DNA of 64,000 nucleotides from Tubulanus polymorphus. Its lineage: Eukaryota; Animalia; Nemertea. Shown here piece by piece: positions 2 through 57,646 of this stretch. A program made the position numbers and the translations under genes. Numbering within the stretch: position 1 is the stretch's first letter; the number at the start of each line of letters is the position of its first letter. Below the pieces are notes generated by a model. The model was not told the origin of the DNA, searched no databases, and saw nothing but the letters and a program-made list of their open reading frames with translations. Location of the stretch: the NCBI RefSeq assembly GCF_964204645.1, contig NC_134033.1:9122655-9186654 (forward strand), written 5' to 3'.

Positions 2-1240
2 TTTGATTGGAAGAAAAGAATCCTAGATATTGCAGATGATTCAGATATTGGTTACTTCTTCGTTGTAGATTTAGAATACCCTGAAAATATTAAATTCAAA
101 TCTAGAAATCTAGCATATTGTCCCGAACATAAAACTGTTAAACATGAAGAATTATCAAATTATCAAAAAAGAATTAAACCTGATAATCATATTCATACTG
201 AAAAGTTAATGGTAACTCAAGAAGATAAATATAATTACGTTGTGCATTATAGAATGTTGAAGTTTTATTTGAGACAAGGAATGATATTAAAAAAAGTACA
301 TAGATATATTTCATTCAGTCAATCTAAATGGTTAGAAAAATATATAGATTTTAATACTACACAGAGAACTAAATCTAAAACTGATTTTGAGAAGGATTTT
401 TTTAAGTTAATGAACAATGCGTTCTATGGTAAGACTTGTGAAAATATTAGAAATAGAAATGATATTGAGTTAGTTAGTAATGGTAAAAGGATAAGGCATT
501 TACAATCATATCCTAAGTTTATAGGTAACAGAATATTTGATGAAAATTTAGCAGCAGTTAAGATGAGAAGAACTTCAATGAAATTTAATAAACCAATTTA
601 TGTTGGAGCTGCAGTTTTAGAAATTTCAAAGCTATTGATGTATGAATTCTATTATAATGTATTACAACCACTTTTTGGAGAAAAACATATAGAAATATTA
701 TATTTTGATACAGATTCTTACATATTAAAGATAAAAACTGATAACATAACTGATGATTTAAAAACATTAAAACATCATTTTGATTTCAGTAACTATCCTA
801 AAGATCATGAATTGTTTAGCAATGATAATAAAAACGTTCCTGGGAAGTTTAAGGATGAATTAGGTGGTGAAGAAATGATAGAGTTCATTGGTATTAGATC
901 TAAAATGTATAGTTATAAAACTAAAACTCATGAAGCTAAAAAGTTAAAAGGAATTACCAAAAGCGTTGTTGAAAAGAATATTCATTTCAAAGATTACATC
1001 AATTGTATATTTAATGAAGAAGTTAGAAAACATAAGATGAAATGTTTAAGATCTGAAGATCATGAAATGTTTATTGAAGAAATTGAAAAGATAAGTCTAA
1101 ACCCATTTGATGATAAAAGATATATTTTAGATGATGGAATTCATACAGTTGCTTATGGTTGCAATTTAGATGAATACTTAAAATTTAAAAGAGAAGAAAC
1201 AAAAGAAAATGAGATTATGAAAAGGATTCTAGCGTGTTAA
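2..1240 (+). CDS. Protein-primed family B DNA polymerase, C-terminal part; intein-free allele
   Basis: Frame is open from base 2. Motif B KLMNNAFYGKT, motif C YFDTDS (701-718), GKFKDE, RSKMY, KLKGI and DDKR are typical of Polinton pPolB. Confidence 0.95.
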   Translation, partial: FDWKKRILDIADDSDIGYFFVVDLEYPENIKFKSRNLAYCPEHKTVKHEELSNYQKRIKPDNHIHTEKLMVTQEDKYNYVVHYRMLKFYLRQGMILKKVHRYISFSQSKWLEKYIDFNTTQRTKSKTDFEKDFFKLMNNAFYGKTCENIRNRNDIELVSNGKRIRHLQSYPKFIGNRIFDENLAAVKMRRTSMKFNKPIYVGAAVLEISKLLMYEFYYNVLQPLFGEKHIEILYFDTDSYILKIKTDNITDDLKTLKHHFDFSNYPKDHELFSNDNKNVPGKFKDELGGEEMIEFIGIRSKMYSYKTKTHEAKKLKGITKSVVEKNIHFKDYINCIFNEEVRKHKMKCLRSEDHEMFIEEIEKISLNPFDDKRYILDDGIHTVAYGCNLDEYLKFKREETKENEIMKRILAC

Positions 1241-2991: not shown

Positions 2992-3414
2992 ATGGCTTCT
3001 GCAATTATAACTATTATAGGATCGGCAATTGTTAACGCTTTAGCATTTACTGGTGGTGGTTATTTATTTAAACATATTGATAAAAATAGTTCATTAGGAG
3101 AACAAAGAAGACATAATTTAGCGTTAGAGAAATACAATAAAGCTGCAGAAGAATATAGAGAAAAGAGACAAAACTATATGGATTACATCAATAAAGAATT
3201 ATATGATCAGAAGATTTCACATAGAGATTTTCAATCAGTTGATGATGCAATGAGTTTATATAACGCAGTAACAAATAAAGAAAAATTACATCTATACAAA
3301 CCTAAATTATCAGATTATTATATCCCAAGTAAAGAACAACAGAAATATGAAATAATTTGGATTTTAGGTGGAACTGTTATTGTTATATTTGTTGCTTATA
3401 AATTTACTAATTAG
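2992..3414 (+). CDS. Predicted membrane protein with N- and C-terminal hydrophobic helices
   Basis: MASAIITIIGSAIVNALAFTGGGYLF and IIWILGGTVIVIFVAY; near-identical copy at 56770. Confidence 0.8.
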   Translation: MASAIITIIGSAIVNALAFTGGGYLFKHIDKNSSLGEQRRHNLALEKYNKAAEEYREKRQNYMDYINKELYDQKISHRDFQSVDDAMSLYNAVTNKEKLHLYKPKLSDYYIPSKEQQKYEIIWILGGTVIVIFVAYKFTN

Positions 3415-3433
3415 TAATTTTTTTTCTAAATAA

Positions 3434-3868
3434 ATGGAAGATAAAGTTGATAGTATTGATATTATTCCTCATGATATAAATAAAACTAAATTAAAAACAT
3501 ATTTAGAAAAACAAATATTAGAATTTGAAAGTGACTTAAAGATAAAAAAGAAAAAATATTTAAAAAGTAAAATTATATATTATTTGATTATAAGTGGTTC
3601 GGTTACAATTAGTTCTGTAATAACATTTCTAGCAATATTCAGCCCATTAACACCTTTAGCTATATCAATTGGTGTGTAAAGATTAAGTTCAAGTGTTTTA
3701 ACTGGTATAAGTTCAAAATTAAATATAAAAAGTAATAAAGAAAAAATAAAATCTAATATAAAAGAAATTAATAAATTAAAGAATACACTAGATTATATAA
3801 TAAGTTTAAATGGTCATATAACAGTTGAAGAACAAGATAAATTATTAAAAGAATTAATAAATTATTAA
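3434..3868 (+). pseudogene. Two-TM membrane protein with premature TAA (3677-3679)
   Basis: Colinear with the intact 144-aa ORF 57212-57646, which has TTA (Leu) at that codon. Confidence 0.85.
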
Positions 3869-9287: not shown

Positions 9288-9899
9288 TTATTTTATAAAT
9301 TTATATTCATAGGGAAATTGTAATCTCAGTAATAATTTTGAACCTTTATTATTCTTTAATTTATTCATATATTCATCATGTAATTCAGGAGGTATAATTT
9401 GATTTTCTTCCAATGATTGTTGCATAGATTTTCTATCTTTGTTGTAGAATAAAACTAGAAATCTTATATTCTCTCTAAAAGCTTTCACAATTGAATTATA
9501 TTTCTGATTTAAAACCCAAGTTGTTATCCCAAAATGTCTTCCAGAGAAAGCTAAATAGCATAACTCACTTTCTCTAACTTTTGAATCATGTAAATCAGCG
9601 CAATCATCTATAATGAATAATGTATTTGATCCTTTATAAGTATCAATTGCTATTTTTATACAATTATCTAAATTTTCTTTTACTGTTTTAGGATCTAATA
9701 TAATAAACTTTTTTATCTTAACTATATCTCTATTATATGTTTTATTCATTTCATATGTAGGACAGAATAATATTATATTATCAAAATGATTCTTATAAAT
9801 AGTTTCTAACAAGTCTAATATGAAATGTGTTTTACCACAATTGGTTACTCCAGTTATTAACATATTATGTGGTTCAAATATAAATAAATCTTTATTCAT
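9288..9899 (-). CDS. A32/FtsK-HerA family genome-packaging ATPase
   Basis: Walker A GVTNCGKT, Walker B LFIIDD, SGRH motif, downstream Q sensor and FRENI. Confidence 0.93.
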   Translation of the reverse strand: MNKDLFIFEPHNMLITGVTNCGKTHFILDLLETIYKNHFDNIILFCPTYEMNKTYNRDIVKIKKFIILDPKTVKENLDNCIKIAIDTYKGSNTLFIIDDCADLHDSKVRESELCYLAFSGRHFGITTWVLNQKYNSIVKAFRENIRFLVLFYNKDRKSMQQSLEENQIIPPELHDEYMNKLKNNKGSKLLLRLQFPYEYKFIK

Positions 9900-10980
9900 T
9901 TATTCTTTTAATTTTACTAGATAAAATCCATTCATTAAATTTATCATCATATCCTTTATATTTCACCAAAGAATACTTTTTTCCTTTAAGAGTTTTTGTT
10001 TTCAATACCTTTTCTATTTTGTATTCTATTTCATCTGGATTTGGTACTAATGATAATTCTTGTTCATAAAAATAACCTAATATTTCTTCATCTTTTAAAT
10101 CAAACAATTTATAAACAAATGGTTTAGTTAATATTATCTTTTTAATTTTAAATATTTCTTCAGTAAAATTAGGGGTATAACCTTTATAAAATGTTTTTCG
10201 ATATTTAGAAATTCTAACATGTTGTCCTATTTTAAATTTAGGTTCTCCGAAATCATGTGTAACAAATGCTCCATATAAATTATTCCAAACTATTTCTGAA
10301 TTTTCTTCTTTTCTAGCTTGTATAGGTTTCATATTTATAGAACTATGTTTAGAATTATTATAACCTTTAACTAAATCATCTAACACATCGATATATTTAT
10401 ATGTTTCATTAGCGGTGAAATATTTCCACATTCTAGTTTTCAATGTTTTATTAAATCTTTCTATAACAGATGCTTTTTTATCTGAATGTGTTGAAAAATA
10501 TTCTACATCGTTATCAGATAATAGTTTTTTAAAATGTTTGTTATAAAATTCCTTACCTTCATCAAATTGTATCTTATCTGGAATAGCTTCTTTAAATATA
10601 GATTTAAAAGCATTTGTTACTTCTATACCAGTTTTATTTTTAATCGGGATACTCCATGCGTATCTACTGAATATATCTATAACATTTAGTATCCAAAAAT
10701 ATCCTTTGTTATATTCTTCTAAGTTTTTCATGTCAATTAAATCAGCTTGCCATTGTTGGTCAATATATGAAACCATTACTTTTCTTGTTAAATATTTTTT
10801 ATCCATCTTTTTATGAATTTGATATGTGGGTTGATTTTGTAACCATGATTTTAATTCACTATATTTTATATTGCTATTATCAGATTTAATTTTATTCCAT
10901 AATTCTGAAACGTTAGAATATGATACTTCACTTTCTGGGTTATAATATAAATCTCTTAAATATTGTTCTTTTTTCATCAT
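9892..10980 (-). CDS. Retroviral-like (rve) integrase with C-terminal chromodomain, intact
   Basis: WQADLID, IDIFSRYAW, QFDEGKEF, IERFNKTLK (DDE); YKIEKVLK...LVKYKGYDDKFNEWI chromodomain. Confidence 0.95.
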   Translation of the reverse strand: MMKKEQYLRDLYYNPESEVSYSNVSELWNKIKSDNSNIKYSELKSWLQNQPTYQIHKKMDKKYLTRKVMVSYIDQQWQADLIDMKNLEEYNKGYFWILNVIDIFSRYAWSIPIKNKTGIEVTNAFKSIFKEAIPDKIQFDEGKEFYNKHFKKLLSDNDVEYFSTHSDKKASVIERFNKTLKTRMWKYFTANETYKYIDVLDDLVKGYNNSKHSSINMKPIQARKEENSEIVWNNLYGAFVTHDFGEPKFKIGQHVRISKYRKTFYKGYTPNFTEEIFKIKKIILTKPFVYKLFDLKDEEILGYFYEQELSLVPNPDEIEYKIEKVLKTKTLKGKKYSLVKYKGYDDKFNEWILSSKIKRINE

Positions 10981-16963: not shown

Positions 16964-19900
16964 CTAATTAGGCTCATGTGCCACCGGGGGCGGGATTCTC
17001 ACTGGAGCAGGTGTTGCTTTTGGCCAAACCCACACAGTGTCCTCAAGTATCGGGTTTTCTGATGATGCATCCGAGTCAGTTGACCCATCCTCTTCAGCAA
17101 CGGGGAGTGATGAAGTTTTTTTCCGTTTTAACCTCCCAGTGGGTTTTATTTCCTTAGGGCAATCCTTTCTGATATCACCGTAACACAACTTCATATCATT
17201 AAAGTGTACTACCCTGGTCTTTTTCTGTCCGCTCACTGGGGATACTCTTACCTCGGACACGCGCTCAATAACAGTATACGGCCCCTTCCACTTGTGGTGG
17301 AATTTTGACGCCTCCCCCTGTTTCAGGAAATGGCTTAGCAACCAGACACGGTGACCCTCCTGGTAACCACCACGCTTGGCAAACCTGTCATATGCCAATT
17401 TCTGGCGCCTCTGAGCAGCCTGCAGACGGTCTCTCACATGGTGATGGGCATAGTCTAGGCGGTCAGTCAGGTCATGGCCGTATTTGGTCGCACCTGAAGG
17501 GTTCGGGTTCCCAACCATGATGTCGATGGGTAATACCATTTCCTCCCCGAAGGTTAGATAAAATGGTGTTTCCTGGGTTGACATCTGGATGCTGGAACGA
17601 AAAGCCATCAGGCATGCGGGCAAATGGTCATCCCAATTGGTACCCTTATCATTGACGGCGACTGTCAGTGTTGACTTCAGTGTCTTGTTGAGGTTCTCAA
17701 CCTGACCATTGCCCATTGGATGGTATGCTGTCGTTCGTGTCTTATCGATGCCTAATATGGTACACATCTCAGCAAATACCCTGGATTCAAAGTTGGAACC
17801 ACGATCGGAATGAATGCTTTCTGGGCAGCCGAATCTGCATACCCATTCGTTCACCAGGATTCGGGCAACAACGTGCGCCTTCTCACTACGAATGGCCCAT
17901 GCTTCTGGCCATTTAGTAAATGCGTCCTGGGCGGCGAGGATGTAAACATTTCCATGGCGAGTACGGGGTAATGGGCCCACAATGTCGACATGAAGGCGCT
18001 GACCACGCCTCCCAATAGGAGTAGGGATAAGTGGGGCCTTTGGACGTTTCGGTGGGGATTTACATTCCTGGCAGATTGCGCACTCTTTAACAAAAGTTCT
18101 TACTCTTGTGGTCAACCCCGGGCACCAAAACCTTTGGCGGGCTTTGTGTTCTGTTTTTGCCCTTCCAAGGTGCTTTCCAGCAAACCCCTGATGCAATTCC
18201 TTAATTGCTTTTGGTGCAAGGCATGCAGGCAGGACAGTGCGGTACTGCTATTTCGTGGAGTCTGTGGGTGGCTTGAAGAGCAGTAGACTATCATGAAGTA
18301 CTAGCCTCTCAATCAGACCATAAAGACTCCGAGCCAACTTCCCACACTGCTGCAGTTCTGCAACAGATGGTTTTGCCTTACTCGTCTCCAGCGTTCTTAT
18401 TACAGAGTAAATATCAGGGTCGCTTCGCTGTGCCAATTTAATTTCGGCTCGGTGTAAGCAATCACGATCAACTTTGACATTTGCTACGAGTGGTGACTTA
18501 GGGAGGCCTGTTGGCCCACAACTTGGGCAGATTCCGTGCTTACTCAATGATCCTCTCGCTCCCGTCTGGTTGGGCCTGAGACAATTTCCCACCAATTGCC
18601 CGTTTACTAGCGTCGAAGTCCAGTATAAAAGTGCCACCTGAGACGGTGAAAACTGGGAATGCTAGAATCGGTGGATTGATAAGTCTGTCTTTCAAGGTCT
18701 GGAATGAGTCTTCCTGTTCTTTACGCCAAACGAACGGGTTATTCTTCCTCGTAAGGCGATGCAATGGTGCGGCTAGAGAGGAGAAGTCTGGGATATATCG
18801 AGAGTAGTATGTGACGAGTCCCATGAAGCTACGTAATTCCGCCACATTCTTTGGGACCGGCCAGTCTCTTACCACCTCTTACTTTGAACTGTCTGCCTCG
18901 ATTCCAGCTGAACTTACAATCCTGCCCAGGAACTTTATTTTCCGCCTCATAAGTTTGCATTTTCTTGGTTTCAGCTTCAAGTTGGCATTCCGTAGGTATG
19001 TGAAAACACCATCCAGCCTTTCCACATGAGTTTCCAGGTCTGAAGAGAACACGACAACATCGTCGAGGTAGATGAGGCACGTTTTCCACGCAACCTCATC
19101 GAGGACCATAGACATGAGTCGTGAGAATGCAGCTGGGGCATTAGTCACCCCAAACGACATCACATTCCACTCGTACAAGTGCCTATCAGTGGTGAACGCC
19201 GTCTTTTGCTTGTGTTGTTCCTTGATTGGCACTTGCCAGTATGAGCTGGTCATGTCGAGGCTAGAAAACCAGACTGAACCAGCCAGGGCTTCGAGTGTAC
19301 TATCAATCCGCCCGAGGGGGTGGCTGTCCTTGACCGTGCACTCGTTCAACTTTCGGTAGTCGCAGCACAAACGAAGAGTGCCGTCGGCCTTCTTGGCTAG
19401 GACAATTGGGCTTGCCCATGCACTATGCGATTCCCGTATCAAGCCCCTATCAAGCAACTCTTTTGTGGTAGTATCTACAAAGTCTCGACGTGCCGGTGGC
19501 ATACGCCGCGGTTGTTGTTTAATTGGCTTCGCCTCACCAGTGTCAATCTCAAAGTCCATGATTTTGGTCTTACCGATATCAAAATCGTTCCGTGAAAAGA
19601 CGTTTCGGTTTTTGTGTATGACAGCAACCAACTGTTCCTTTATTTTGGTCGGAATGTCCAGGTCTGGGACTCCTAGTTCCCCCAGGAGGTTCTGTAGATC
19701 AGAGTCATGTGGTGTCTTGTCGAACTCTTGTACTACTTGCTGTTTGGTACCTTCGTTAAGAGACATTACTTCAAGCGATTGCAGAGGGCAAAAACACCCA
19801 ATAGGTTGGCCGCGTTTGACTCTATAGGTGCAATCTGAGAAGTTGGCCAGTCTTACAGGTACCTTGTCGTCCTTTGGTACCACAAGTGACTTTCCCGTAC

Positions 19901-20548
19901 AGAACTCAGACCGTTTGCTACCCTCGATGATCCCCGGCATATAGTTTCCCATGGAGTTGCGTTTGATGTAACCTTCAACTACCACCTCTTGAGCCAGCTG
20001 GAATATACTGGGTCCGGCTTACGTAGACCCTGCACGCCTTTGGCCGAGACTGTCCTTGCTGGAGCGGGACTTCCGTCGGTCCAATCCTGAGGGAACGGTT
20101 TTCAAAGTTGACCGCACACCCATGTTTGTCGAGGAAATCACTACCCAACAGCAGGTCCTGGGAGAGGTCATCCGCAATTATCATTGGGTGCTCGATCTTC
20201 ATACCCCCAATTTCGAGCGCAACGTTAGCAATACCCCAGAGACATCTCCTGTCCAGTTGCCGTCACGAGAGATCCATTAACCGGGGACAGGGAATCGCTA
20301 CACTTAGAGCTCTCCCATACTGAAGCCTGCAGCACGGTACACGCTGCTCCAGTGTCAATTAGAAGTACTTTATTCTTCTCCCCATTCACCCGTCCACTAC
20401 AGTAAAGCCCAGTATCGTGTAGTGTTAACTGGCCTATGTTCAGGCTATCTGTCGAAACCTTTGCCAACTCATTCGTAAGACAAGGACCATCTGCAGGTAT
20501 GTCATTAGAATGAGAGATATCGGCATTGAATGAGGCGCGCCTACTCAT
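16964..20548 (-). pseudogene. pol: Gypsy pol (protease, RT, RNase H, integrase), frameshifted
   Basis: LIDTGA protease; LRLCCDYRKLN and YLDD RT; DFDAS RNase H; HHCC, VDIVGPLP, SDRGSNF, GQVENLN and GPY integrase motifs. Confidence 0.93.
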
Positions 20549-20556
20549 ATCCTTAG

Positions 20557-21891
<1,335 letters not shown>

Positions 21892-24477: not shown

Positions 24478-27140
24478 CAAGTTCAAGTTCAAGTTCAAGT
24501 TCAAATTTATTTCACAGAAAGCATGACAGGCTAAGTACACAGGTTGAGAGAAAACAAACAATAAAATTTACATTTTTTTTAAAGCACAATTATAAAAAGA
24601 GAGAGAGAACAGTAGCTTTCAGTGTGGGCCAAGCAAAGCCTTTAGGCCGCTGTCGCAAACACCCAGGGAAAAAAACGAAAGGGAAATGAAGAAACAAAGG
24701 GGAAGGAAATGAGAGTTCATGATTTTTGATAATTTCAGAGGAGTTTATATGAGTAAGCTAGAGGGTTCAGGAGAGTGAGCAATTATAACAATTAGGGTTA
24801 TTACATTGATGGATATCATTGTAGGCGGAGGTGAGATATGGTCTGAGTTTACGTTTTAAATTTTGTTTGCTTGTTTGTAGGATGTCATTGGAAAAAGGTA
24901 GTTTTCGCCAGATGTTTGAAAGAATGTTTTGAGGTGAATTTTGATGCGGGGTTGGCGGTGTTTGTTTTGAAAATAAAGAATATGCGTGGTCTAAATATGT
25001 GCTTTTTCTGATGTTGACTAAAGGAGATAAGTTTTCCGCGGTGAAGTAATTAGAAAAGCAATGGGGTGAAGATTTGATGGTGTTTTGAATGAAAAGTGCG
25101 CTTTTAAGGATGAGGACATCATTGATTTTGAGGATTTCAAGATTTTAAAAAAGTGGGTGTGTGTGTGCAGTGTACTTAGAGTTGGTGATTATTCGAACAA
25201 TCATCTTTTGGATTAGGAGGCATTTTTATTATAAGGCGAGTGACCCCAAGCCAACAAGCCATAGTTCAAATGAGGATAGACTAAGGTGTAGTAAAGAGAA
25301 AGCAAATTTTGTGTGTCTAGGATGTTTTTAGTTTTGTTTATGATACCAGTAACTTGGGAAATTTTCTTGTGTATTTTGTCGATATGTGGTTTCCAGTTCA
25401 GATTTTCATGTATTGTCAAACCGAGGAAATCTATTTGTTTTACTCTTTCAAGTTCAAAGTTGCCTATTTTGATTTGTTGTACGTGGTTTATGAATGTTCT
25501 TCTCTGATAATTATGAAATATGATATATTTAGTTTTGTTCAGATTAGGGGTTAGTTTATTAGCGATAAGCCAGTCATTCAATATGTTTAGGTTATAATTA
25601 ATATACTGTGTGAGTGTGTTGAGGTGTGTATGAGAAGCAATGCAATTTGTATCGTCAGCGAATAATATGCCTTCATGTTTACCAACGAGGCATAGATATC
25701 ATTGATGTAAATTAGAAAAAGAAGTGGACCTAGGATGGAACCCTGGGGTACACCGATGTTTGAGGACAGTGTAGTGGAGTTGTAGGATTTGTACGAAACG
25801 TATTGTTGACGATTAGAATATGAGGATAACCAATCTCTTGCTATTCCTCGGATGCCGTAATGTTCAAGTTTATCTAGTAGTATATCGTGGTTAAGAGTGT
25901 CAAAAGCCTTCGAAAGGTCCAGGAAAATGCCTATTGTCCATGCATGGTTATTTATAGAGTTAGAAATTCTGTCTATGAGTTCGAGTATTGCATGTTCGGT
26001 TGAATCGCTGTGTCGGAAACCATATTGGTTAGGAAAAAGGTGTTTGTCAATGAATTTAGAAAGTCGTTTATGTACAAGTTTTTCGTAGATTTTGGAAAGT
26101 GAATTTAGTAGTGAAATGGGTCGATAATTTTCGATCAGTTTTATGTCACCTTTTTTTATGTAAAGGTGTTATTTTAGCTATTTTAAGTAAATCGGGGAAT
26201 TTGCCTGTTGAGAAGGATTGATTTAAAAGGCAAGTTAGTGGGTATGATATGTGGTTAATGATTCTCTGTAGGGTGTATGTGGAAATGTTGTCATGACCAC
26301 TTGAGTGTTTTGTTTTGAGATTATTTATAGTTTCTATGACTTATCTTTCGCACACTGGCATGAGGAAGAAGTTAGAGTCGGATCTAGGTAAATTGTTCAG
26401 GTAGTGTTGAGATGGCATTTGAGCCAAGGGAAGTTCATTCGCTAGATGTTCACCAATTTTATTGAAGTGATTGTTAAAGGAGTTGGCAATTTTGAATGGG
26501 TCGATAGTCTTAATGTTGTTAATTTTGAATGAGTGTGTAATGAATGTCTTGTTTATTATTAGTTTTCCCGATATCTTCCCTCAGGATTTTATGTTGTCTT
26601 TTATGTTGCCGTTTGCTATTTTTAAGGATTTTTAGTAGTGAAGTTTTTTGGAAAGTCTAATGATTGAGTTAAGTTTGTTTCTGTATGTTTTGAAGTTGTG
26701 TAGTTCGATAGCACGTAGGATTTAATTTTTTTATAGACATTAGGTGTATGTATTTTTTATCTTTGTTGTAGATTGATTGAAGTATGCCTTTAAATATCCA
26801 TGGGCATTTTGGTGTGTTGTAGTTGTTTTGTTTCAGTTTTTTTGATGTGGTTTCTGAATTAATTATAGTGCTTAACGTCGCTGAAAATGATTCGAATGTT
26901 TCGTTTATTGAAACGTTGTTGTTAAGGAGTGTTGGGAAGTCAATATTGCTGAGTTTATCACATATATTGTTAAATCCTTGTTCACTGATAAAAGTTTTTG
27001 TGTATGTTTGTTTACTATTGGGTTTTTGTTTTGTTCTGTGACTACACGCAAAAGTGATAAAATGGTCCGAGAGTGGTGTTGTAAGGATGCCCGAGTAATA
27101 GTTATGTCAGTTAGTAAATATGTTGTCAATTAGAGTGGTG
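24478..27140 (-). mobile_element. 5'-truncated, degenerate L2/CR1-group LINE
   Basis: Minus-strand TTLIDNIFTN and SDH (APE end), LDLSKAFDTLNH, GVPQGSILGPLLFLIYIND, FADDT; 3' tail AATAAA followed by (GAACTT)n. Confidence 0.9.
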
Positions 27141-44100: not shown

Positions 44101-46678
44101 TTCTTAATCTGGATACCAGGGCGATGTACGGGTTCCCGGGTTGTTTGGGATTCAAGAACTCAGGCAGGGGTGTCAAACAGCGGAGGAGGGGTACAAGGGG
44201 GCGGGATTTCCGGCTGCGGGTTTTTTTTTTAGAATTTTGATTTCTGATGCAGAAAAGCCGGCGGTTACAGCGGGCGGTGAACAGTAGTTATTTTTTCTGC
44301 AGGCATCGAGTAACCGGAACCCCGGCTCCTGAACACCAGGCCGTTTTCAGACCAAAGGAAGACAAGAAATAGCATAATATTATGAACTTGAACAGTTTGA
44401 TATCTTTTTTGACGCCTTATAAAACGTTACCATTATGAAACCTAAACAATGTTAACCATTCAGCGTCATTTTACAAACGACAGCCGTAAATCGATGTGCA
44501 AAACGTCACAGGTCTATGTGTACACAAACAAGCTATCTGGCAAAATATTATTGACTTAGATGTAGAATGGCTTCCTGTGATTATATAATGACCTATATTT
44601 GACATGGAAATGTTATATTGCATTGAATATCATTAGAAGACGTATCGTAATAGTAAAGGATGTATGATTATATCAGAAGCGGCAGGCATAAATAGAAATG
44701 ATAAGTAAATCGGATTATTCGGTTAAATGGCGGATGTATACACGATGCGGAAGTCTGATATAAAAGTCAGACCCTGACGTGGGCATGCCGGTGGAATGAC
44801 GAAGCTATCTACGATGTGTGTAGGGCCGGCGTGAATTTCATCAGCGGCTACAAGCGGTTGATATGAAAATGTGTAAACATATAATTTCAATATTCAAACG
44901 TTTTAGAAAATATGTTTGATATTAGGAGTATGCAGGTTTCGTGAGATTAGCAATTTATAATAGCATAGCTGTCATATACGGCTCCGCGTCCTCTGATGGC
45001 ATGTGTATTAGGTGACAATTCAATTCAATTCTTTATTGATCCTTATTACATTGAAATTCCAGGATAAAATTCCCAAATTCAATAAATACAAATTTTAAAA
45101 TAAATTAATACAACATACATGACACACGGGTAATTCATACAGAACAACATAAGCATGTTATTTTAAATGACAATGTCTACTTCAACCCACCCAGACTCAA
45201 GACTCTAGGATATCGAGTGACAGCCGAACCCGTGGCCCGAGGACTGGGCCGGCTGGCTAGGCCACACGATATGCTCGAAGTCATGATGAAGCAGACATCA
45301 GAAGAGCTCTTTCTACAACCATGGAGGCAATGAAGTTGCAGACCAGCTTAGAGGCATAAGTAAATGAAGTCGGTCGCAAGTTCGCGATCAATTATTGAGA
45401 ATTTTCAATAAAAAAATTACTAGTAGAGTCGAAGACCTTTATCATCTACCCAATCGCCAAATCTCATCATTCCCCAAATTTCTTAAAACTTCGATTTCAA
45501 ATTTGCAATTCCACATTAGCTTAGCCCAGAAATTCTACTTTTTTTTCGCAGGCGTCAAATAATTTTCTTGTTAGTTTTGTGATTCGAAAAACTTTTCGTT
45601 GCCCGCGGGAGAGGAACGGCCGGCGCGCCTAGTCCAGGGTGTTCACAGTATGGCCTAATATCGTTGTGTCCGGTCCAGGTGTCCATTATCCAAAGGAAAT
45701 CTATTTCTGGTTTGAATAAAATGTTGACTATGTTGGTTTTCATATAATTGACGGTGACTGTACGCGTCAACATGTTAAACGATTTATATGCAGTAAATAT
45801 TGAAAAAACATACACTGCGGTGGCGCTAGCGGAGGGACACCCGTACTGTAAATAAGTCGTATGTCATATGTCGTATCTCGTATGTTGCATCTCATATCTC
45901 GTATGTTATATCTCGTATGTCGTCTGAGGTCTTCCATACATACAGACTACTATATGGTGATGCTGTAACGCTGATTGGCGCGTGCGCATTTGGTCCGTGC
46001 GCAACAGGCTAAATAATCATCATAGCAGAAAATGAGTGCTATGTTTTTCTGTTAGATAGAATTGTAGTAATTCTAAGCAGCAAACTATAGGTATAGATCA
46101 ACTCTGAATATTGTAGTGGTGAATTCCAGGATTTAAAACGATCGAATACTACGCCCGGTGTTTTAGCTTCCGCGGCCATACATTGGAAGAGGTTTCGTTT
46201 CCAAGACTCAATATTCAGCCACCCTCTGATATGTCACATCATATGAATTTTATTTGAATATTTTTTCATATTGTGAAAAATAATTTTTTGAAAATATAAA
46301 ATAGTTTCCCTGCCGCGCCTACCTGTACCCTACGAAATTTTGGAGGTAGACCATAAACAAATGTTTATCTTTGGTCTTATTTGACTACAAAATAATTCTT
46401 TAAGAAAAATGAAATACAATATAGACTTCTAGAACTTTGAAGAATTAAAAGATTTTTCAAGCAATGCCCTTACTCCAAACAACCTCTAGCTTTCAAGGTA
46501 AACCACACTTTGCCCATGGGCAATTTATTTTAAACAAGTACTGACTTTATTAGTTATTGGTGGAAAGAGAAAAAATAGCCTACCCATCGAGCCATAGCTT
46601 TCATTAAGAGTCTAGAACCAGATATCTTAAAGCATAACTGATTCTAATGATATTCTACAATTTGTATCATTTCAGTGA
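29152..46678 (+). CDS. TPT1: Translationally controlled tumour protein, 177 aa; exons 29152-29179, 34781-34851, 35417-35596, 38142-38283, 40592-40701, and 46676-46678 (stop only)
   Basis: Spliced translation MIVFNDLLTGVEIFSDSF...YYEVEGK...IGANASAEG...DYKAYLKQYMK...DYREDGVTPYFIVFKD; all introns GT-AG with consistent phases. The last exon (ttcag|TGA, AATAAA near 47062) is less certain; without that splice the frame ends V-S-stop at 40710. Confidence 0.92.
29494..30720. mobile_element. MITE with GGTCATCCTTATTACCGAGATGAC TIRs and 8-9 bp TSD (G)GATAGTAT; hosts a nested MITE
   Basis: TIRs and TSD visible; Merlin/MULE-like termini (inference). Confidence 0.85.
29521..30308. mobile_element. P-element-like MITE, long TIRs starting CACAGGGG, 8-bp TSD GATGACAT
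   Basis: Near-perfect inverted arms of more than 200 bp; TSD at 29513-29520 and 30309-30316. Confidence 0.9.
30733..31074. mobile_element. Related P-like MITE, TSD TATAAGC
   Basis: CACAGGGG...CCCCTGTG termini; homologous to the element at 29521. Confidence 0.88.
31572..32826 (+). mobile_element. Helentron-associated non-autonomous element (HINE-like), copy 1; contains a 165-bp MITE at 32566-32730 (TSD ATATG)
   Basis: Homologous to 33453-34696; internal ~120-bp tandem repeats; ends CCCCTAGT. Confidence 0.7.
33453..34696 (+). mobile_element. HINE-like element, copy 2
   Basis: Subterminal inverted repeat GCCCACTTGGGA (33459) / TCCCAAGTGGGC (34665), GTCC-type microsatellite remnant, T-rich flanks. 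Confidence 0.75.
35664..36696. mobile_element. Non-autonomous DNA transposon with 16-bp TIR CAGTGCTTCATCTAGC, flanked by ACAGTC duplication
   Basis: Perfect TIRs visible; hAT-like termini. Confidence 0.85.
38595..39345 (+). mobile_element. HINE-like element, diverged partial copy 3
   Basis: TTTTTAGCCTATTTGGGAC start and patchy homology to copy 2. Confidence 0.6.
40892..41850. mobile_element. piggyBac-type non-autonomous element
   Basis: TTAA|CCCTTACAATACCAC ... GTGGTATTGAAAGGG|TTAA. Confidence 0.85.
42822..45938. mobile_element. DNA transposon with ~130-140 bp internally repetitive TIRs (TATGGAAGACCTCAGAC...), flanked by CATACA duplication
   Basis: Inverted arms at 42822-42964 and 45810-45938. 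Confidence 0.88.
44408..45559. mobile_element. 1.1-kb non-coding mobile element with TTTGACGCCT / AGGCGTCAAA termini, copy A
   Basis: Full-length homologue at 53295-54390. Confidence 0.88.
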
Positions 46679-48012
46679 ACAGAACTATCATCTACAGCCG
46701 TAGCAAACACGCTTATGATTTGAAAATTGCCATCTTACAGCATCCTGTCAACTGGCAGTCAAATTTTCATGGAACTGTTTGCATCAAATTTTGTGAAGCG
46801 CCAATATGCAATTTTATTAGTTTGCTTTTTTCATTAAGAATCTTCCAAGGTTTTGAAAAAGAAATTTTATTTCACTCAGGATCAGTCAGGCAAACATGGG
46901 ATTGTCTACCACACACAATACATACAAAATCAATTGAAAATGTTGGCTTCTTAACATGGTGAAGTGTAGTGCAACCAATGAAATGATAAGCGTCTCTTCT
47001 TCCTCATTTAAATTATTGTTATTACAAAGTACTATGGTGCGTAAAAATTCCTCATTATTAAATAAATTAATGAATACTTGAATGTATGATCATTCAATGT
47101 ACTTTAAATGTTGTGTTTTGTGGTCATCATTTTTGTGGGGTTATTCTTTCGTTCAGGCACATAACCTCAGGGATTCTATACTACTGAATCACATTGTCTG
47201 ATTTTGTAAGCTAGTCTTTATTGTAGTTCAGAAAAAAACCGGTGTTACCACTAGCCACAACCTTTTTTAGCAAAGCTATTTTCAGTCCTATTCTCGAAGA
47301 ATGGTCGACGTCGGAAATCCGGAACAGAGCGAAAGAGTAAAGAGCAAACTATCAGTTTGGAATACCAAAACTGGACTGACTTTATTTTTACACATAGCTA
47401 TTTATATAACACAGATTCAGACAGGTTGAGACATGGAAAATGATGCAAAAACAAAGGTAGTAGTGACATGACAGTGAGACAAACAACAATTAACACATTC
47501 TGACACAGACAAACAGTCTCAGAGGACAATGAGTAATAAGATGGAGAAATAAAACAATAAAGAAATACGAAATATAGATGAAATATGTATAACAATTATC
47601 AGTGATATTTAGTGTTGTTAAACTTTCACATGAATTACATTAATGGGAGAAACTTATTACATGTACATAGCATGAAAAAGTTTTTGTTGACGTCTATGAC
47701 ACCAATGCCAGTAAAATGGATCGATGGTCCGTAATCAAGAAAAGATCCAATGCTTTACTACGCGAATGGAGAGAATTTTAAATGACTTGGTTTCCAGATG
47801 AAAGGCCTTAAGGCTGGCTTATGTCGACAAGCAATGCGACGCCTACCGACGCAACTGGGTTTATCGCCGATTAGCGGTCTACGAGAGGCCGCCAGTTGCT
47901 GCTCTATCGGTTCGACATAAGTCGGCTAGTAATTGGAAGATGTGGGTTTCATACCAGAGTACTAGAGTACTAAACACCACTCATCACCACAAGTAATTTT
48001 TTTTCCTAATAA

Positions 48013-51000
48013 ATGGGAGAGAGTGAGTACCAGACAGAAAACAATGATGTTAATAAAAATCAATATTATTGCCAATATTGTAAAAAATACATCGATAAAT
48101 CTAATAAATCTAAACATGAAAAATCTTCAAATCATATAAAAAATGTTATAGATTTTGAAACCCCAGAAAATTCCAATGAAAGAAAAGAACGATTAGAAAA
48201 TATGAATGTGGATGTGGATGAAATAAAATTTGAAGTTTGTAATGAATTTATAGTAAAAAGGAATTATAATAGACATCTCGAATCACAAAAACACCATCAA
48301 AATTTGAGTAATAATGTTTTAGGAAAAGATTATTTTGATGATAAACCTCAAAAAGTAAAAAAACCAACTTCAAAAACTAAATCCATTTCAAATAAACCTT
48401 ACATGGAAAATGTTAGAAATTATATTGATTCACTAGAAATAAAAGATACAATTGAAATATTAGAAACATTACGTAGTAAAATTGGTCCTGCAGCTATTAT
48501 ATTTAGATTTTTTAAAGGTACAACAATAGAAGATTATAGTAAATTTAATGAAAAAATAGAAAAAATACTAGATTTGATAACAGATGATGAATATCCAAAA
48601 ATTAGTATCTCTGGGAAAGTACGTTTTTTAAAGTCAGAAGAGAAAATGGATTATAATATTCAAACACTCTTTGAAGAAATAATTTCAAAAACGCAATAAA
48701 ATAGAAGTTAGAAAAAATATTTAATGAATTTAAACGTCATATTGAAGAAAGATATTTTGAGGGTTCTGGCTTAACATTGAATGAAATTATATATTTAGAT
48801 TTAAATGTTTATAATACAAAAAGAAATAAAACATCAAAAAGTAATAAAATGTTTAAAAATGATTCAAACTTTACAACAGAAAAGGATATTAAAGCATCAT
48901 CTTATATTAAATTACCATTTACAACAAAAGCAGTAATAAATGTTAAAAATGAAGATAATAAATGTTTTCTATGGTCAGTTATTAGTTGTTTACACCCAAC
49001 AGAAGATATGACGCATAGTTTTAGAATAACAAATTACCGGAAATATGAAACATTATGTAAAATTGATCAATATCCAGTAACTATAAAAATGATTCCTAAA
49101 ATAGAAAAAGTTAATAATTTAAAAATAAATGTATTCGAATTAATGCAATTACCAAAGACAAAAGGTGAAAATGTTAAAGAAGCTTTATATTTAACAGAAT
49201 ATTATGATGATGAAAATGCTATAGATTTGTTATATTACAAAAAAAGATGAAAATGAACATTATATGTGGTTAAAACAAATTGATTTATTCTTTAGAACAG
49301 AAAGTGATCATCATCGTAAAATTTATCTATGTAGAAAATGTTTATCTAAATTTATGACTGAGAATACATTATTAAAACATAAAAAATTATGTGATAATAA
49401 AGATTTTTGTAAATTAATAATGCCAACAGAAAAAGATTATAAATTGAAATTTACTAATCATAAATTTAAGAATATTGTTCCATTTGTAATTTATGGGGAT
49501 TTTGAATCGTTGAATAAAGAATTAACTGATCAAGATAGAAAAGAAATATATAACAAAAAGCAATTATTAAAATCAATGGATAAAGGAAATGAATTAAATG
49601 AAGACACAATACAAGACCCACCAATTATAAATACAATTAAAAAAGTTCATCAAAGAGCTGCTGCTTATGGAATTTACATCAAATCAAATTATCCCGAATT
49701 ATATGAAAGTCAAGATATTTCTTTTAGAGGTGAAAATGTAGTTAATGATTTTTGTGATAAAATGATTGAATTAGAAAGTGATTTTGCAAAATTATTAAAC
49801 AAAAATAAAAGAATAGTTATGACAAAAGAAGATGAAATTGATTTTAATTATGCAACTCATTGTTGTTATTGTGAAAAAAGTTTTTATTCATTTAATAAAA
49901 AAAGTTAGAGATCATGATCATTTAAATTCAAAATATCGTGGAGCTGCTCATGAAGATTGCAATTTACAAGCTAAGAAAGTTAATTTCGTACTAATATTAT
50001 TTCATAATTTATCAGGCTATGATACCCATTTATTTGTAAAACAATTATCAGGAAAATTAGGTGCAATTAATCAAGAAATAGAAGAATATAATGCTATGAA
50101 TGGTGTAAATGTAAGAAAATATGATTTTAAACTATTAGCTAAAACATCTGAAAATTATATTTCATTTCAGTTTGGTTGCATTAGATTTTTAGATTCTTAT
50201 AGATTTCTAGCAAGTTCATTAGATAATTTATCAAAAAGTTTAGTTGATAATGATTTTGTTATAACTCGATATTATTATCCAAATGACCAAGATTTTAAAT
50301 TATTGAGATATAAAGGCGCAATTCCTTATTCATTTTATAAAACACACAATGATTTTAATGTAACAGAATTATTAAAAGATCAATTTTATGATTAATTAAA
50401 AGAGGAGTATGTGAAAGATGAAGTGTTTAATAGAACATTAAATATTTGGAACCATTTTAAGATGAAAAATCATGGTGAATTAGTTGATTTATATTTAAAA
50501 TCAGATGTTATGATATTAGCTGACATATTTGAAAAATTTAGAGAAGTTAATTTGAATCATTTTAATGTTGATCCTTGTTATTGCTACTCTAGTCCTGGTT
50601 TAACCTGGCAATGTGGTTTAAAATATACAAATGTAGAATTAGATTTATTAAAAGAACCAGATATGGTTTTATTATTTGAAAAATCAATTAGAGGTGGAAT
50701 TAGTGGTGTTATGGGAGATAGATATTTTAAAGCAAATGATGAATATAAATTATTATATATTGACGCCAATAATTTATATGGTTGGGCAATGATGCAACCT
50801 CAACCATACAAAAATTTCATATTAACAGAAGTTGAAAATGATGACAAAACTGATTGGGAAAGCGCAATTGCGAGTTTAGAAGATGAAGCACCAATTGGTT
50901 ATTTCTTTGTAGTTGATTTAGAATATCCTGAAAATATAAAGTTTAAAATATAAAAATATAAACTTACCTTATTGCCCAGAACATTTAACCGTAGATGATA

Positions 51001-53009
51001 GTTATTTAAGTGAATACCAGAAAAAAATAAAACCGAAAGATCATGTTTTTACAGAAAAATTAATACTCAAAATAATAAATACAATTATATTGTTCATTAT
51101 AGAATGTTAAAATTTTATCTGAAACAAGGAATGGAATTAAAGAAAGTACATAGATATATTGAATTTAATCAATCGAAGTGGTTAGAAAAATATATAGATT
51201 TCAATACTCAACAGAGAACCATATCTAAAACAGATTTTGAAAAAGATTTCTTCAAATTAATGATTAATAGTTTTTATGGTAAAACATGTTAAAATATTAG
51301 AAATAGAAATGATATTGAATTAGTAAATAATTCTGAAAGATTAAGACATTTACAATCAAGTCCTAGACATTTAGGAAATAAAAGATTTGAAGATTATTTA
51401 ACAGCAGTTAAATTAAAAAGAACATCAATGAAATTTAATAAACCTAAATTCATTGGTTCAACTGTTTTAGAAGTATCAAAATTATTAATGTATGATTTTT
51501 ATTATAATGTTTTACAACCACTTTTTGGGGAAAAACATATAGAAATCTTATATTTTGATTCTGTAACAGCTGACACCCCAATATTATTAAAATGTAATAA
51601 TGAAATATTAATTAGAAGAATTTCAGAAATAATTCCAAAACAAAATGAATTATATTTCGTATGATGAAAAAGAATTAATACAAATAAATGAATTGATAGA
51701 TGTTTGGACAAGAAATGGATGGAAAAAATTAAAGAATATTATTAGGCATAAAACAAATAAGAAAATCTATAGAGTTAGAACTAAATTAGGGTTTTTAGAT
51801 GTTACAGAAGATCATAGTTTAATTAAACGAAATGGCGATGAAATAAAACCAACTGATATAAAAATTGGAGACGAATTATTACATAAAAGATTTTTCCAAA
51901 GAATGAATCATATGTCATTTGATGAAATAATTGATAATATTTATAACATAGAACCCGAAACATTAGAAGAAAAAGAATATTTTATCAAAGGATTTTTCAT
52001 GGGAGATGGTTCAGCAGGTGTGTATAAATATGTTTGGGGTAATAAATATTGTTGGTATTTATGCAATCAAGATTTGATATTATTAGAAAGAATAAAGAAA
52101 TATTGTGAAGAAGTTTATCCAAATAAAACATTTCAAATCATGGATGTTATGGAATCATCAGCAGTTTATAGAATACTTGTAAATAATCGAAAAGATTTTG
52201 CTATAAAATATAATGATGAATTCTATATTCATGCAATAGTGAAAAGTAATACTTCAACAAAAGAAAAGATAGTTCCAGATTATGTATTAAATGCAAAAAA
52301 TTATTTAAGAAAATGGTTCTTCATTGGATTCTATGCAGCAGATGGTGCTAAAAAATTTACAAAGGATAAAAAGATAACCTTTGCACAGAAAGGAAAAGTT
52401 GCTATATCAGGGTTAAATATATTATGTAATTCATTAGGCTTCAATATGAATATTGGATTGATTAAATCTAAACAAATTGCTTTAATCTAAGCCACACAGA
52501 AAAAGATCAACTGAAGATGGTACATTTAACAGTGGATTTCCATTAATTTGCTTCAATACTGACAGTTACATACTAAAAATCAAGACAAATGACATAACAA
52601 AAGACTTAAAAACATTAAAACATCATTTTGATTTTAGCAATTATCCCAAAGATCATGAACTATTTAGCAATGATAATAAAAAGATTCCTGGTAAGTTTAA
52701 AGATGAATTAGGGGGTGATGAAATGATTGAATTTGTTGGGATAAGAAGTAAAATGTATAGTTATAGAACAAAAGACCATGAAGCTAAAAAATTAAAAGGA
52801 ATAACAAAACATGTGGTTGATAAACATATAGAATTTCAAGATTATATAAAGTGTTTATATAACTCAATTGTAATGAAACACAAAATGAATTGTTTAAGAT
52901 CAGAAGATCACGAGATGTACATGAAGTTGAAAAAACTAGTTTGAATCCATTTGATGATAAAAGGCATATTTTAGATGATGGTATAAAAACATTACCTTAT
53001 GGTCATTAA
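48013..53009 (+). pseudogene. Protein-primed PolB (N-terminal ZnF, vOTU-like domain, EndoVII-like insert, exonuclease, polymerase) with intein; many frameshifts and stops
   Basis: DNKCFLWSV...HYMW, YGDFES, VRDHDHLNSKYRGAAHEDCNL, FHNLSGYD, FLDSYRF, YLKSDV, IRGGISG, YIDANNLYG, KLMINSFYGK, YFD//TDS. Confidence 0.93.
51560..52557 (+). mobile_element. Intein with LAGLIDADG homing endonuclease in PolB motif C (degenerate)
   Basis: Block A SVTADTPILL, block B VTEDHSLI, block C GFFMGDGS, block D KIVPDYVLN, block E GFYAADGA, C-terminus TEDGTFNSGFPLICFN followed by +1 Thr; absent from the element 1 allele. Confidence 0.93.
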
Positions 53010-55314
53010 AACATAAAATCAATATCATCATACTCGAAATCACTATTGGCTTCTTCATTTTCATTTAATTGTTTAGGTTCTTCTTCCATTTCATTTTTCT
53101 CATTTAAATAAAGTTCTATCTTGTTCCACATTTCATCTCGCTCTCTTTGTTTCTTTTTGTTTGTTAATTCATCAAATGGAATTATAATATCTATGTTTAA
53201 ATAATTTACAATCTTATTTAAAAAGAATTCATAATTTATTGAATCTGTTATTCTATTTTCCAAATGATACATTAATATTTGTTTGAATATTTTTTTTGAC
53301 GCCTTATAAAACGTTACCATTATGAAACTTAAACAATGTTAACCATTCAGCGTCATTTTACAAACGACAACCGTAAATCGATGTGCAAAACGTCACAGGT
53401 TTATGTGTACACATACAAGCTATTTGGCAAAATATTATTGATAAAGATGTAGAATGGCTCCCTGTGATTATATAATGACCTCTATTTGAACGTCGAAATG
53501 TTATATTGCATTGAATATCATGATAAGAGGTATTGTAATAGTAAAGGATGTATGATTATATCAGGAGCGGCAGGCATAAATAGAAATGATAAGTAAATCG
53601 GATTATTCGGTTAAATGGCGGATGTATACACGATTTGGAAGTCTGATATAAAAGTCAGACCCTGACATGGGGATGCTAGTGGAATGACGAAGCTATCTAC
53701 GATCTGAGTAGGGCCGGCGTGAATTTCATCGGCGGCTACAAGCGGTCTATATAAAAATGTGTAAACAAATAATTTCAATATTCAAATGTTTTAGAAAATA
53801 TGTTCGATATTAGGGGTATGCAGGTTTCATGAGATTAGCAATCTATAATAGCATAGCTGTCATATACGTCTCCGCGTCCACTGATGGCATGTGTATAAGG
53901 TGACAATTCAATTCAATACTTTATTGATCCTTATTACATTGAAATTCTGGGATGAAATTCCCAAATTCAATAAAGTTACAAATTTTAGAATAAGAAAATA
54001 CAAAATACAAGATACATGGGTAATTCATACAGAATAACATGAATAAGTTATTTAAATGACGATGTCAACCCAGACTCAAGTCTAGGATATCGAGTGACAG
54101 CCAAACCGGGACCGGGCCGGCTGGCTACACGATATGCTCGAAGTCATGATGAAGCAGACATCAGAAGAGCTCTTTCTTCAACCATGGAGGCAATGAAGTT
54201 GCAGACCAGCTTAGAGCAAAAGTGAATCGAAGTCGGTCACAAGTTGACAATTTTTTTTAAATTAGACCAGTCGAAGACTGTATCATCGCCAAATCTCATA
54301 ATTCCCCAAATTTCTTAAAACTTCGATTTCAAATTTGCAATTCCACATTAGCTTATCCCAGAAATTCTACATTTTTTCGCAGGCGTCAAATAATTTATTA
54401 AAGTTAATTTTCTTGTTTATATTTTTCATATCTTCTTCTGTTAATTTAGGTTTTTCATAATAATCGTTAAATAATAAATATAAATACATTTTCTTTTATT
54501 TTGTGTTAAATGTTGACGGAATAATTGTTTTTATAATATCTTTTTTAGTTATTTCACCATTTTTATTTTCTATTATTTTCATTTTTTCAAGCCATTGCAT
54601 ATATTATAACACAGTACCTTCTTGCCTTAAGGTCGCGTAACTACATTGTGGACATTTTCGTTTATAATTTATTGGTAATAGATCTTCATTAAGCTCTTGG
54701 TATTTTCTTACGTTTTCTTTATGTTTTATTGTTCTATTATGTAGATTTGAATTACTTGTTGTAATAATCAATTTACAATATTTACAATAATATGTTTTTC
54801 TTGTTAATTCATTATATTGTTTTTCTAACTTTTCAACTGTTTCTTTATTATCTGGTAACGTTTTCTCATATTTTATTTTTTCTAATAAATTATTTTTTCT
54901 TTCATTGAATTCAGTTTCAAATTTATTAGAAATTTTATCTATATGTGGTTTACGAAATTGATGATTCTCCCAATCTTCTATATTTTCAGGGCTATATTTT
55001 ATTCGACAAGGCTCACAGAAATGATCTTTTATATTATCCTTATCATAGAATAAGAAAGGTCTTTTCCAAATAATTTCAGGTTCAACTTCAACAGAATTAC
55101 TATTAATTTCGTTACTATCAACATTAATCGTTGAGTCATTAATTTTACACTTCTCTGAATGTTTTTTAACATAATTTCTTGAGAATAATTTATTACATTT
55201 TGGGCAGTTTAGTTTAGGGGGTTTATAATTTTCTTCATGTTTTTTCATATGTCGAGCCATATTACTTTTTCTTAGAAGTTCACCACAAATTTCGCATGCT
55301 ATCTTCTCATCCAT
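53006..55314 (-). pseudogene. Multi-C2H2 zinc-finger viral gene split by a transposon
   Basis: CEIC..HMKKH, CPKC, CEPC and CKYC fingers in 54604-55314; coding-like sequence continues through 54391-54600 and resumes below 53295. Confidence 0.7.
53295..54390. mobile_element. 1.1-kb mobile element copy B inserted in Polinton 2
   Basis: Colinear with 44408-45559, same termini, more GC-rich than the viral flanks. Confidence 0.9.
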
Positions 55315-56769: not shown

Positions 56770-57192
56770 ATGGCTTCTGCAATTATAACTATTATAGGAT
56801 CGGCAATTGTTAACGCTTTAGCATTTACTGGTGGTGGATATTTATTTAAGCATATTGATAAAAATAGTTCATTAGGAGAACAAAGAAGACATAACTTAGC
56901 ATTAGAGAAATACAATAAAGCAGCAGAAGAATATAGAGAAAAGAGGCAAAACTATATGGATTATATTAATAAGGAATTATATGATCAGAAGATTTCACAT
57001 AGAGATTTTCAATCAGTTGATGATGCAATGAATTTATATAATGCGGTAACCAAGAAAGTAAAATTACATCTATACAAACCTAAATTATCAGATTATTATA
57101 CCCCAAGTAAAGAACAACAGAAATATGAAATAATTTGGATTTTAGGTGGAACAGTTATTGTTATATTTGTAGCATATAAATTTACTAATTAG
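56770..57192 (+). CDS. Predicted membrane protein
   Basis: Near-identical to 2992-3414. Confidence 0.8.
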   Translation: MASAIITIIGSAIVNALAFTGGGYLFKHIDKNSSLGEQRRHNLALEKYNKAAEEYREKRQNYMDYINKELYDQKISHRDFQSVDDAMNLYNAVTKKVKLHLYKPKLSDYYTPSKEQQKYEIIWILGGTVIVIFVAYKFTN

Positions 57193-57211
57193 TAATTTTT
57201 TTTCTAAATAA

Positions 57212-57646
57212 ATGGATGATAAAGTTGATAATATTGATATTATTCCTCATGATATAAATAAAACTAAATTAAAAATATATTTAGAAAAACAAATATTAGA
57301 ATTTGAAAGTGACTTAAAGATAAAAAAGAAAAAATATTTAAAAAGTAAAATTATATATTATTTGATTATAAGTGGTTCGGTTACAATTAGTTCTGTAATA
57401 ACATTTCTAGCAATATTCAGTCCATTAACACCATTAGCTATATCAATTGGTGTATTAGGATTAAGTTCAAGTGTATTAACTGGTATAAGTTCAAAATTAA
57501 ATATAAAAAGTAATAAAGAAAAAATTAAAACTAATATAAAAGAAATTAATAAATTAAAGAATACACTAGATTATATAATAAGTTTAAATGGTCATATAAC
57601 AGTTGAAGAACAAGATAAATTATTAAAAGAATTAATAAATTATTAG
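57212..57646 (+). CDS. Two-TM membrane protein, intact
   Basis: Hydrophobic hairpin flanked by basic coiled segments. Confidence 0.8.
   Translation: MDDKVDNIDIIPHDINKTKLKIYLEKQILEFESDLKIKKKKYLKSKIIYYLIISGSVTISSVITFLAIFSPLTPLAISIGVLGLSSSVLTGISSKLNIKSNKEKIKTNIKEINKLKNTLDYIISLNGHITVEEQDKLLKELINY

Follow-up and report, generated by a model that had tools for sequence, protein, structure and literature searches.

Two Polinton-like elements on one chromosome have the same polymerase site, occupied by an intein in one element and empty in the other, and this raises the question of what happens to the DNA around a site that an intein can enter. Homing and co-conversion are known processes. A first-pass annotation took the two copies as donor and target alleles and read the recoded flank next to the intein as either a co-conversion tract or the mark of target-site escape. 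We analyzed the window (the whole 64,000-nt stretch of DNA that holds both elements) together with related polymerases, loci with DNA, and sequencing reads.

Two Polinton-Like Elements and Their Shared Site

The window contains two AT-rich elements (~1–15 kb and 48–64 kb; elements 1 and 2), each with a protein-primed PolB (pPolB), an RVE integrase, and an A32 ATPase. In these genes they resemble Polinton/Maverick elements; a capsid search gave only a weak match to Capsid_N for 60549–61685 (E = 0.009), and the atlas was without a match for 57663–59051. Both elements run past the window at one end, and the left end of element 2 has no match elsewhere within it. In element 1, an A32-type packaging ATPase (9288–9899, reverse strand; PF04665, E = 6e-13) adjoins a retroviral-type integrase with a chromo domain (9892–10980, reverse strand; PF00665, E = 2e-9), and this integrase/ATPase block is inverted between the elements (9295–10833 vs. 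62014–63552). Identities between their genes are uneven, ranging from ~47–69% (integrase) up to 97% of amino acids, and the elements are thus mosaic. At about 3413–3441, 47992–48020, and 57191–57215, the gene start reads TAAATG and is preceded by AGTAAT and a run of T, an arrangement that we take to resemble poxvirus late promoters. The elements are separated by DNA of the host, a eukaryote that is probably an invertebrate animal; this DNA is rich in retroelements, among them an LTR retrotransposon (RT, integrase) at 16964–21486 and a decayed LINE-type RT at 24767–27106. A 1.1-kb host repeat, 88% identical to 44395–45565, lies inside element 2 behind PolB (53281–54396).

The PolB of element 1 (2–1240, forward strand) consists of the C-terminal 412 codons, is open up to its stop and free of an intein, and has its 5′ part beyond the window; it is 78% identical in nucleotides to that of element 2. 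Its motif C (701–718, forward strand) reads YFD/TDS, where the slash marks the insertion site, and the codons TAT TTT GAT/ACA GAT TCT run uninterrupted across 709/710, just as first annotated. Inteins of five intact pPolBs (P0001, P0003, and P0047–P0049) sit at the same site. Position 709/710 is an empty homing site in the catalytic motif of the DNA polymerase of a Polinton-like element.

In element 2, the intein (51560–52557, forward strand; 998 nt) occupies the same position as the junction of element 1, 50.85 kb away, in agreement with the earlier estimate of ~51 kb. It lies between an upstream flank (51500–51559, forward strand) and the downstream flank of 16 codons described as recoded (52558–52605, forward strand). 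The intein has two LAGLIDADG motifs and the ends S...CFN/T, with Ser first, Asn last, and Thr at +1. It matches PI-PkoII (E = 1e-5), PF14528 is over the cut-off, and Asp is retained in both LAGLIDADG motifs, as it is in intact relatives. The Hint splicing domain PF14890 is below the cut-off on the broken piece (23.2 bits) and over it in the intact relative P0047 (37.7 > 35.8). The insertion is broken by two frame changes (near 51655–51665 and 52470–52505), whereas in P0001, P0003, and P0047–P0049 the intein is unbroken and in frame. Judged by these features, the insert belongs to a true intein family, although its own copy is dead.

The host gene has decayed as well, with at least five frame changes plus stops in the PolB of element 2 (PF03175; 48013–53010, forward strand). 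As a decayed member of a multi-copy family, element 2 has no special standing as a donor, and with its polymerase and intein broken in several places, the proposal that elements 1 and 2 form a local donor and target pair is not supported.

Two further, partial pPolBs (P0002 and P0059) also carry this intein. Among inteins of PF00136 polymerases, the six pPolB inteins that were placed make up a single clade (SH-aLRT 99, quick tree), which suggests that the intein entered pPolB once and then spread horizontally. P0003, a distant pPolB (YLD/.../TDSC), contains a member of this intein family as well, a sign of long-range horizontal spread. Related inteins occur in P0004 and P0033 within proteins bearing type II topoisomerase Pfam domains.

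Asymmetry between the Two Copies

The two flanks of the site differ in how similar the elements are, largely as first described. Upstream (650–709, forward strand), 3 of 60 nt are mismatched (661, 679, and 697), the same small number that had been noted; downstream, 13 of 16 codons differ, 10 synonymously and 3 non-synonymously, and 3 are identical, which bears out the description of most codons as changed and most changes as silent. The 16 codons upstream and the 16 downstream differ significantly (Fisher P = 0.0007).

Whether the downstream flank exceeds the background of the whole PolB depends on how this is asked. Among 386 codons (381 gap-free), the downstream 16-codon window is the top window for synonymous changes, and the excess at the pre-chosen junction is significant (P = 0.0035; 0.0087 when stratified by amino acid), with a window length of 16 codons that was picked after the data were seen. 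By 25 codons the excess is lost (P = 0.25), and counted by nucleotides, 15 mismatches in the 48 nt downstream do not stand out from the background of 0.224 (P = 0.099). The same excess for any window in the gene has P = 0.41/0.31, as would be expected if the pattern had arisen, without any role for an endonuclease, from the usual mosaic recombination of a large repeat family together with chance and a relaxation of motif C peculiar to one clade. That explanation, which we return to below, is in our judgment unlikely, if far from negligible. The claim of elevated downstream divergence consequently holds for synonymous changes at the junction itself and fails for nucleotides and for the gene-wide comparison. 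In contrast, the upstream 48 nt have only 2 mismatches (P = 0.0006). The asymmetry is genuine, and most of it comes from upstream similarity rather than downstream divergence.

Among 83 loci with DNA, five are close relatives (L004–L008; 75–86% amino acid identity to the PolB of element 1) and all five are empty. Elements 1 and 2 are not sisters in the gene tree, where L004 is the partner of element 1 and L007 that of element 2 (88 vs. 19 and 16 informative sites). Against this tree, the two elements have derived upstream letters in common (His to Leu at –13 and Met to Leu at –4), and the tree signal of elements 1 and 2 vanishes between 649 and 715. The upstream stretch of 650–709 is therefore likely a converted patch, as judged from its discordance with the tree. 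Sites 715–717 follow the gene tree, and the downstream flank, unlike the upstream tract, is not discordant. A comparable run of four equally discordant sites occurs at 810–847, and the element 1 and 2 pair, taken alone, is modest evidence.

The first-pass annotation had placed the exchange on the other side: the downstream 16 codons of element 2 would be a co-conversion tract that arrived with an intein from a more distant donor. This is compatible with the explanation that we favor below, and we consider it possible but on balance doubtful. In the downstream flank of element 2, diagnostic changes begin right at the insertion site. The 16-codon stretch also ranks first in comparisons with L005, L006, and L008, which are near-identical, so these results count as one comparison. 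L007, the empty relative nearer to element 2, differs from it at 11 of the 48 nt (P = 0.068), and all four bases private to element 2 are G or C. However, four private bases are within background (P = 0.23) and match the number in element 1, there is no synonymous excess relative to L007 (4/12, P = 0.35) or L004 (P = 0.15), and the three amino acid differences are mostly changes of element 1 itself. No donor was found. Scans of viral contigs recovered three distant loci, and none for P0001, P0047, or a degenerate upstream pattern. Since L007 has codons +2 and +3 of element 2 and shows no excess, the recoding is in large part divergence between lineages. The downstream block of element 2 is not supported as a foreign donor tract by these comparisons. 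We also considered a GC-rich foreign tract (GC3 of 0.38 in the block vs. 0.15) and rejected it, as only the four private bases speak for it and they are not significant.

Variation among Copies in Reads

Reads from run X6, of which 12% was read, sample many copies of the family; the run is labeled with an organism whose runs contain 0.40–0.48 of the sampled words and which may not be the window's own species. Copies with and without the intein are both present. Depth is ~114–266 inside the intein and 611–630 just outside it, the intein is bridged exactly in 76 reads, and a further 60 bridge it with letters of the element 1 type. Among 1,381 reads on element 1, the junction marks a drop in depth from 641 to 488, and 126 reads run into an intein. 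The depth drop and the reads entering the intein indicate that 20–24% of copies are intein-bearing.

The downstream flank appears not to be inherited as one block. Codons +1 to +3 (710–718, forward strand) exist in two forms at about 50:50, with letters of the element 2 type at +6 to +8 in 51–53% of reads, nearly all of which are from empty copies. In the remainder of the divergent block (725–757, forward strand; +16 to +48), element 2 letters are at 14–16% at 8 of 11 sites and at 21%, 56%, and 57% at the three others, and upstream they are at 29–35%. At least ~113 reads, a bound from marginal counts, must join an element 2 type +6 with an element 1 type +30; this bound indicates that the first downstream codons move apart from the farther block. 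The frequency of the farther block roughly equals the share of intein-bearing copies, a linkage drawn from marginals in one run. This match, closer than that of the upstream letters, is consistent with a downstream tract that travels with the intein. The expectation that flank and intein correlate across copies agrees with a match in frequency for +16 to +48 and is contradicted for +1 to +9, whose element 2 form is in half of the empty reads and in L007.

In run X6, 26 reads have loose ends before position 720 that are unlike the end of the intein. Over 52417–52570 in the same run, depth halves in the last 150 nt of the intein and loose ends agree at only 75%, so more than one version of the intein is present among copies. 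In run X3, summed contig depth over 50800–53100 is 6,000–138,000, far higher than in other runs; for the contig runs X2 and X3, presence alone was confirmed. Run X1 was rejected as evidence of habitat (share of 0.05).

Conversion Tracts at the Site in Other Families

Relatives provide clearer cases of exchange at the site. Loci L005 and L006, both empty, are 99.6% identical over 5,125 nt, and 15 of their 22 substitutions are within –42 to +9 of the site, in a 52-nt tract that projects onto 667–718 (forward strand) of element 1 and changes YFD/TDS to YLD/TDA. The L005 patch is known from one assembly. YLD/TDA is absent from all 11 complete intein-bearing proteins, so the donor of this patch was probably also empty.

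A cluster of 136 members, of which 15 were seen, includes P0047 and provides the second case. Between seven intein-bearing and three empty copies, 12 of 12 fixed differences are within –7 to +44 of 1,191 columns, and the six empty copies seen that cover the site all have TDA or CDS. From this distribution, we interpret the tract of the P0047 family as a co-conversion tract with the very asymmetry that had been proposed in the first pass. That proposal is upheld in this family and not in the flank of element 2, to which it was originally applied; the short upstream and long downstream shape seen here, and in passages on the plant cox1 intron (PMC3192709), nevertheless lends the element 2 reading some support. 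In the clusters of P0052, P0054, and P0055, all from empty copies, none of the three varies at the site.

Conversion tracts do occur at the empty homing site, as had been suggested: they are shown in the L005 and L006 pair and in the P0047 family and likely in elements 1 and 2, in each case from patterns of substitution. Plain mosaicism could account for part of this. We compared 16 near-identical pairs (drawn from 29 alignments by requiring ~97% identity or higher but not full identity, with redundant pairs thinned out), and 11 have dense tracts somewhere; two have a tract that spans the junction (0.33 expected, P = 0.044), and in a third the tract stops 12 nt short of it. This third pair and one of the junction-spanning pairs, L037 and L042, belong to a clade without known inteins, and sub-genic mosaicism is described for these viruses in a source whose available text lacks the word "intein" (10.64898/2026.10.13.758929). 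Against mosaicism alone, the junction tract of L005 and L006 is the sole tract in 5.1 kb and covers 1% of the alignment, and every fixed difference of the P0047 family flanks the intein.

Two observations come from the clade without known inteins. The tract of L042 is over the same site, at about 3585–3670, and P0238, P0242, and P0274 form a group with DID/TDG. These cases possibly reflect another endonuclease or a lost intein.

Change of the Target Motif across Polymerases

We placed 335 pPolBs in a tree; four of 339 were dropped for having fewer than 200 columns (including the partial intein-bearing P0002 and P0059), P0003 was left out by a score filter, and the tree has no protein entry for element 2. 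Inteins are in 11 of 132 members of clade A, in three separate subclades, and in 0 of 203 members of clade B. By parsimony, residues –2 to +3 changed 45 times in clade A and 23 times in clade B (a share of 0.66 against 0.30), and this enrichment in clade A ranks first of 305 windows. The rank is kept after dereplication, among empty copies only, without the largest subclade, and in two of three subclades; the P0049 subclade ranks only 7–8 (P = 0.06). One of five control subclades in clade B also ranks first at –2 to +3 (5 changes, P = 0.047), as plain mosaicism with relaxed constraint would allow, and the other four rank 293–311. Most of the rate signal is supplied by column –2 and could reflect relaxed constraint after the loss of Thr; changes at +1 and +3 mostly stem from one subclade.

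TDS is altered in 33 of 121 empty members of clade A versus 7 of 203 members of clade B, in a set where many sequences are integrated and possibly decayed copies. DTDA and DCDS are found only in empty copies, and TDS is kept by 11 of 11 complete intein-bearing proteins. That the changes strike the catalytic DTDS motif itself, and in empty copies only, argues against an explanation that leaves out the endonuclease.

The escape proposed in the first pass was of another kind, in which element 1 evaded cutting by synonymous recoding downstream of the site, a switch of the Ser codon included. We consider this improbable. In its favor, 33% of synonymous changes in WHO6 conferred resistance (as given in excerpts of 10.64898/2026.08.13.744650), the switch between TCN and AGY alters non-wobble positions, and the two codon forms are at about 50:50 among empty copies. 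However, the Asp and Ser codons of element 1 are of the same classes as those of its relatives L004 and L006 and so are lineage states. The Ser of DTDS is also no more mixed in codon class than other conserved serines (30 AGY:47 TCN among clade B loci, compared with, e.g., 18:41, 23:46, and 21:26), and we rejected the codon-class switch as a mark of escape at the family level. In excerpts on tested intein endonucleases, PI-SceI and PI-PspI cut fully wobble-recoded targets (PMC3159444); wobble changes are tolerated and non-synonymous changes lower cutting (PMC3159444 and PMC3024317). Escape is thus plausible through the non-synonymous changes and poorly served by the synonymous ones.

A Contested Homing Site

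Taken together, we favor endonuclease-driven conversion at a contested homing site, with likely non-synonymous escape, and regard this as probable. The homing endonuclease of the intein would cut empty copies at the site, and another copy would serve as the repair template. In other inteins, cutting of the empty allele is followed by repair through homologous recombination (described in portions of PMC3024317 and PMC3159444). An intein-bearing template would transfer the intein plus its flank by co-conversion. An empty template would transfer a short patch only, so that the target would keep being swapped, and such repair may favor target forms that cannot be cut (DTDA, DCDS, and an altered –2). 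The asymmetry between elements 1 and 2 would then be mainly an upstream patch across two lineages set against lineage divergence downstream, with some of the downstream block perhaps moving together with the intein. The partners in exchange are probably the many copies or replicating forms and not these two neighbors. We infer both the endonuclease as the cause of the tracts and the resistance of TDA and CDS to cutting. The stronger version, an intein-driven arms race in the active-site motif of Polinton polymerases in which resistant DTDA and DCDS spread via the endonuclease's own breaks, is tentative, and we lean somewhat against it.

Comparison with Known Systems

The insertion site bears what we take to be the "Pol-c" label of family B DNA polymerase inteins. 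Like inteins at Pol-c in archaeal and giant-virus PolB, the one described here lies between the first Asp and the Thr of DTDS, has Ser...Asn ends, and has two LAGLIDADG motifs, and the nearest relatives of pPolB inteins sit in PF00136 polymerases. Unlike those inteins, it resides in the protein-primed, PF03175-type polymerase of a Polinton-like element that integrates, and the copy in element 2 is broken. Purifying selection is believed to protect the targets of inteins, and for that reason escape at catalytic residues is documented mainly for WHO elements, which are not inteins.

Three systems, each as portrayed in part of its source, bear on the pattern. Co-conversion by the cox1 homing intron leaves asymmetric diagnostic exon changes beside the insert (PMC3192709), as found in the P0047 family, whereas here patches are also in empty alleles and include amino acid changes, and the upstream side has the clearer patch in the case of elements 1 and 2. 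In the arms race of WHO and FBA1 (10.64898/2026.08.13.744650), a LAGLIDADG target likewise overlaps an active site and residues beside the catalytic ones diversify, but here a true intein resides in a mobile element's own polymerase, and selection and resistance are inferred from sequence only. In resistant MCM-d alleles of haloarchaea (PMC10643990), a change in an extein residue at the site similarly limits the spread of the intein and has to be co-converted; Pro there blocks splicing and not cutting. Here, +1 stays Thr or Cys, which makes a block to cutting the likelier effect of the altered targets.

Across open-access main texts, with few subscription papers, we found no earlier account of a Polinton polymerase with a complete intein at its catalytic motif or of the evolution of the intein's target. 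In one passage, nuclease domains of polinton pPolB are suggested to stem from intein invasions, with no mention there of a complete intein, an insertion site, or evolution of the target site (PMC11071308). Inteins in viral-like polymerases are described on nuclear scaffolds of algae and a labyrinthulid in a source whose excerpts leave polintons unmentioned (PMC10710043), and the available parts of two others mention inteins in general terms only (PMC12220804 and PMC3671162).

The element 1 and 2 pair is valuable as a pointer to a homing site that is contested within the active-site motif of Polinton polymerases. Copies with the intein, without it, and with altered targets occur side by side, so that homing, the length of co-conversion, and resistance are measurable within single genomes, and the finding suggests that integrated Polintons still meet and recombine. 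If the stronger version is true, a horizontally spreading intein is hosted by Polinton-like viruses integrated in eukaryotic, probably animal, genomes, and would represent a natural gene drive with natural resistance alleles that can be read in hundreds of copies per genome.
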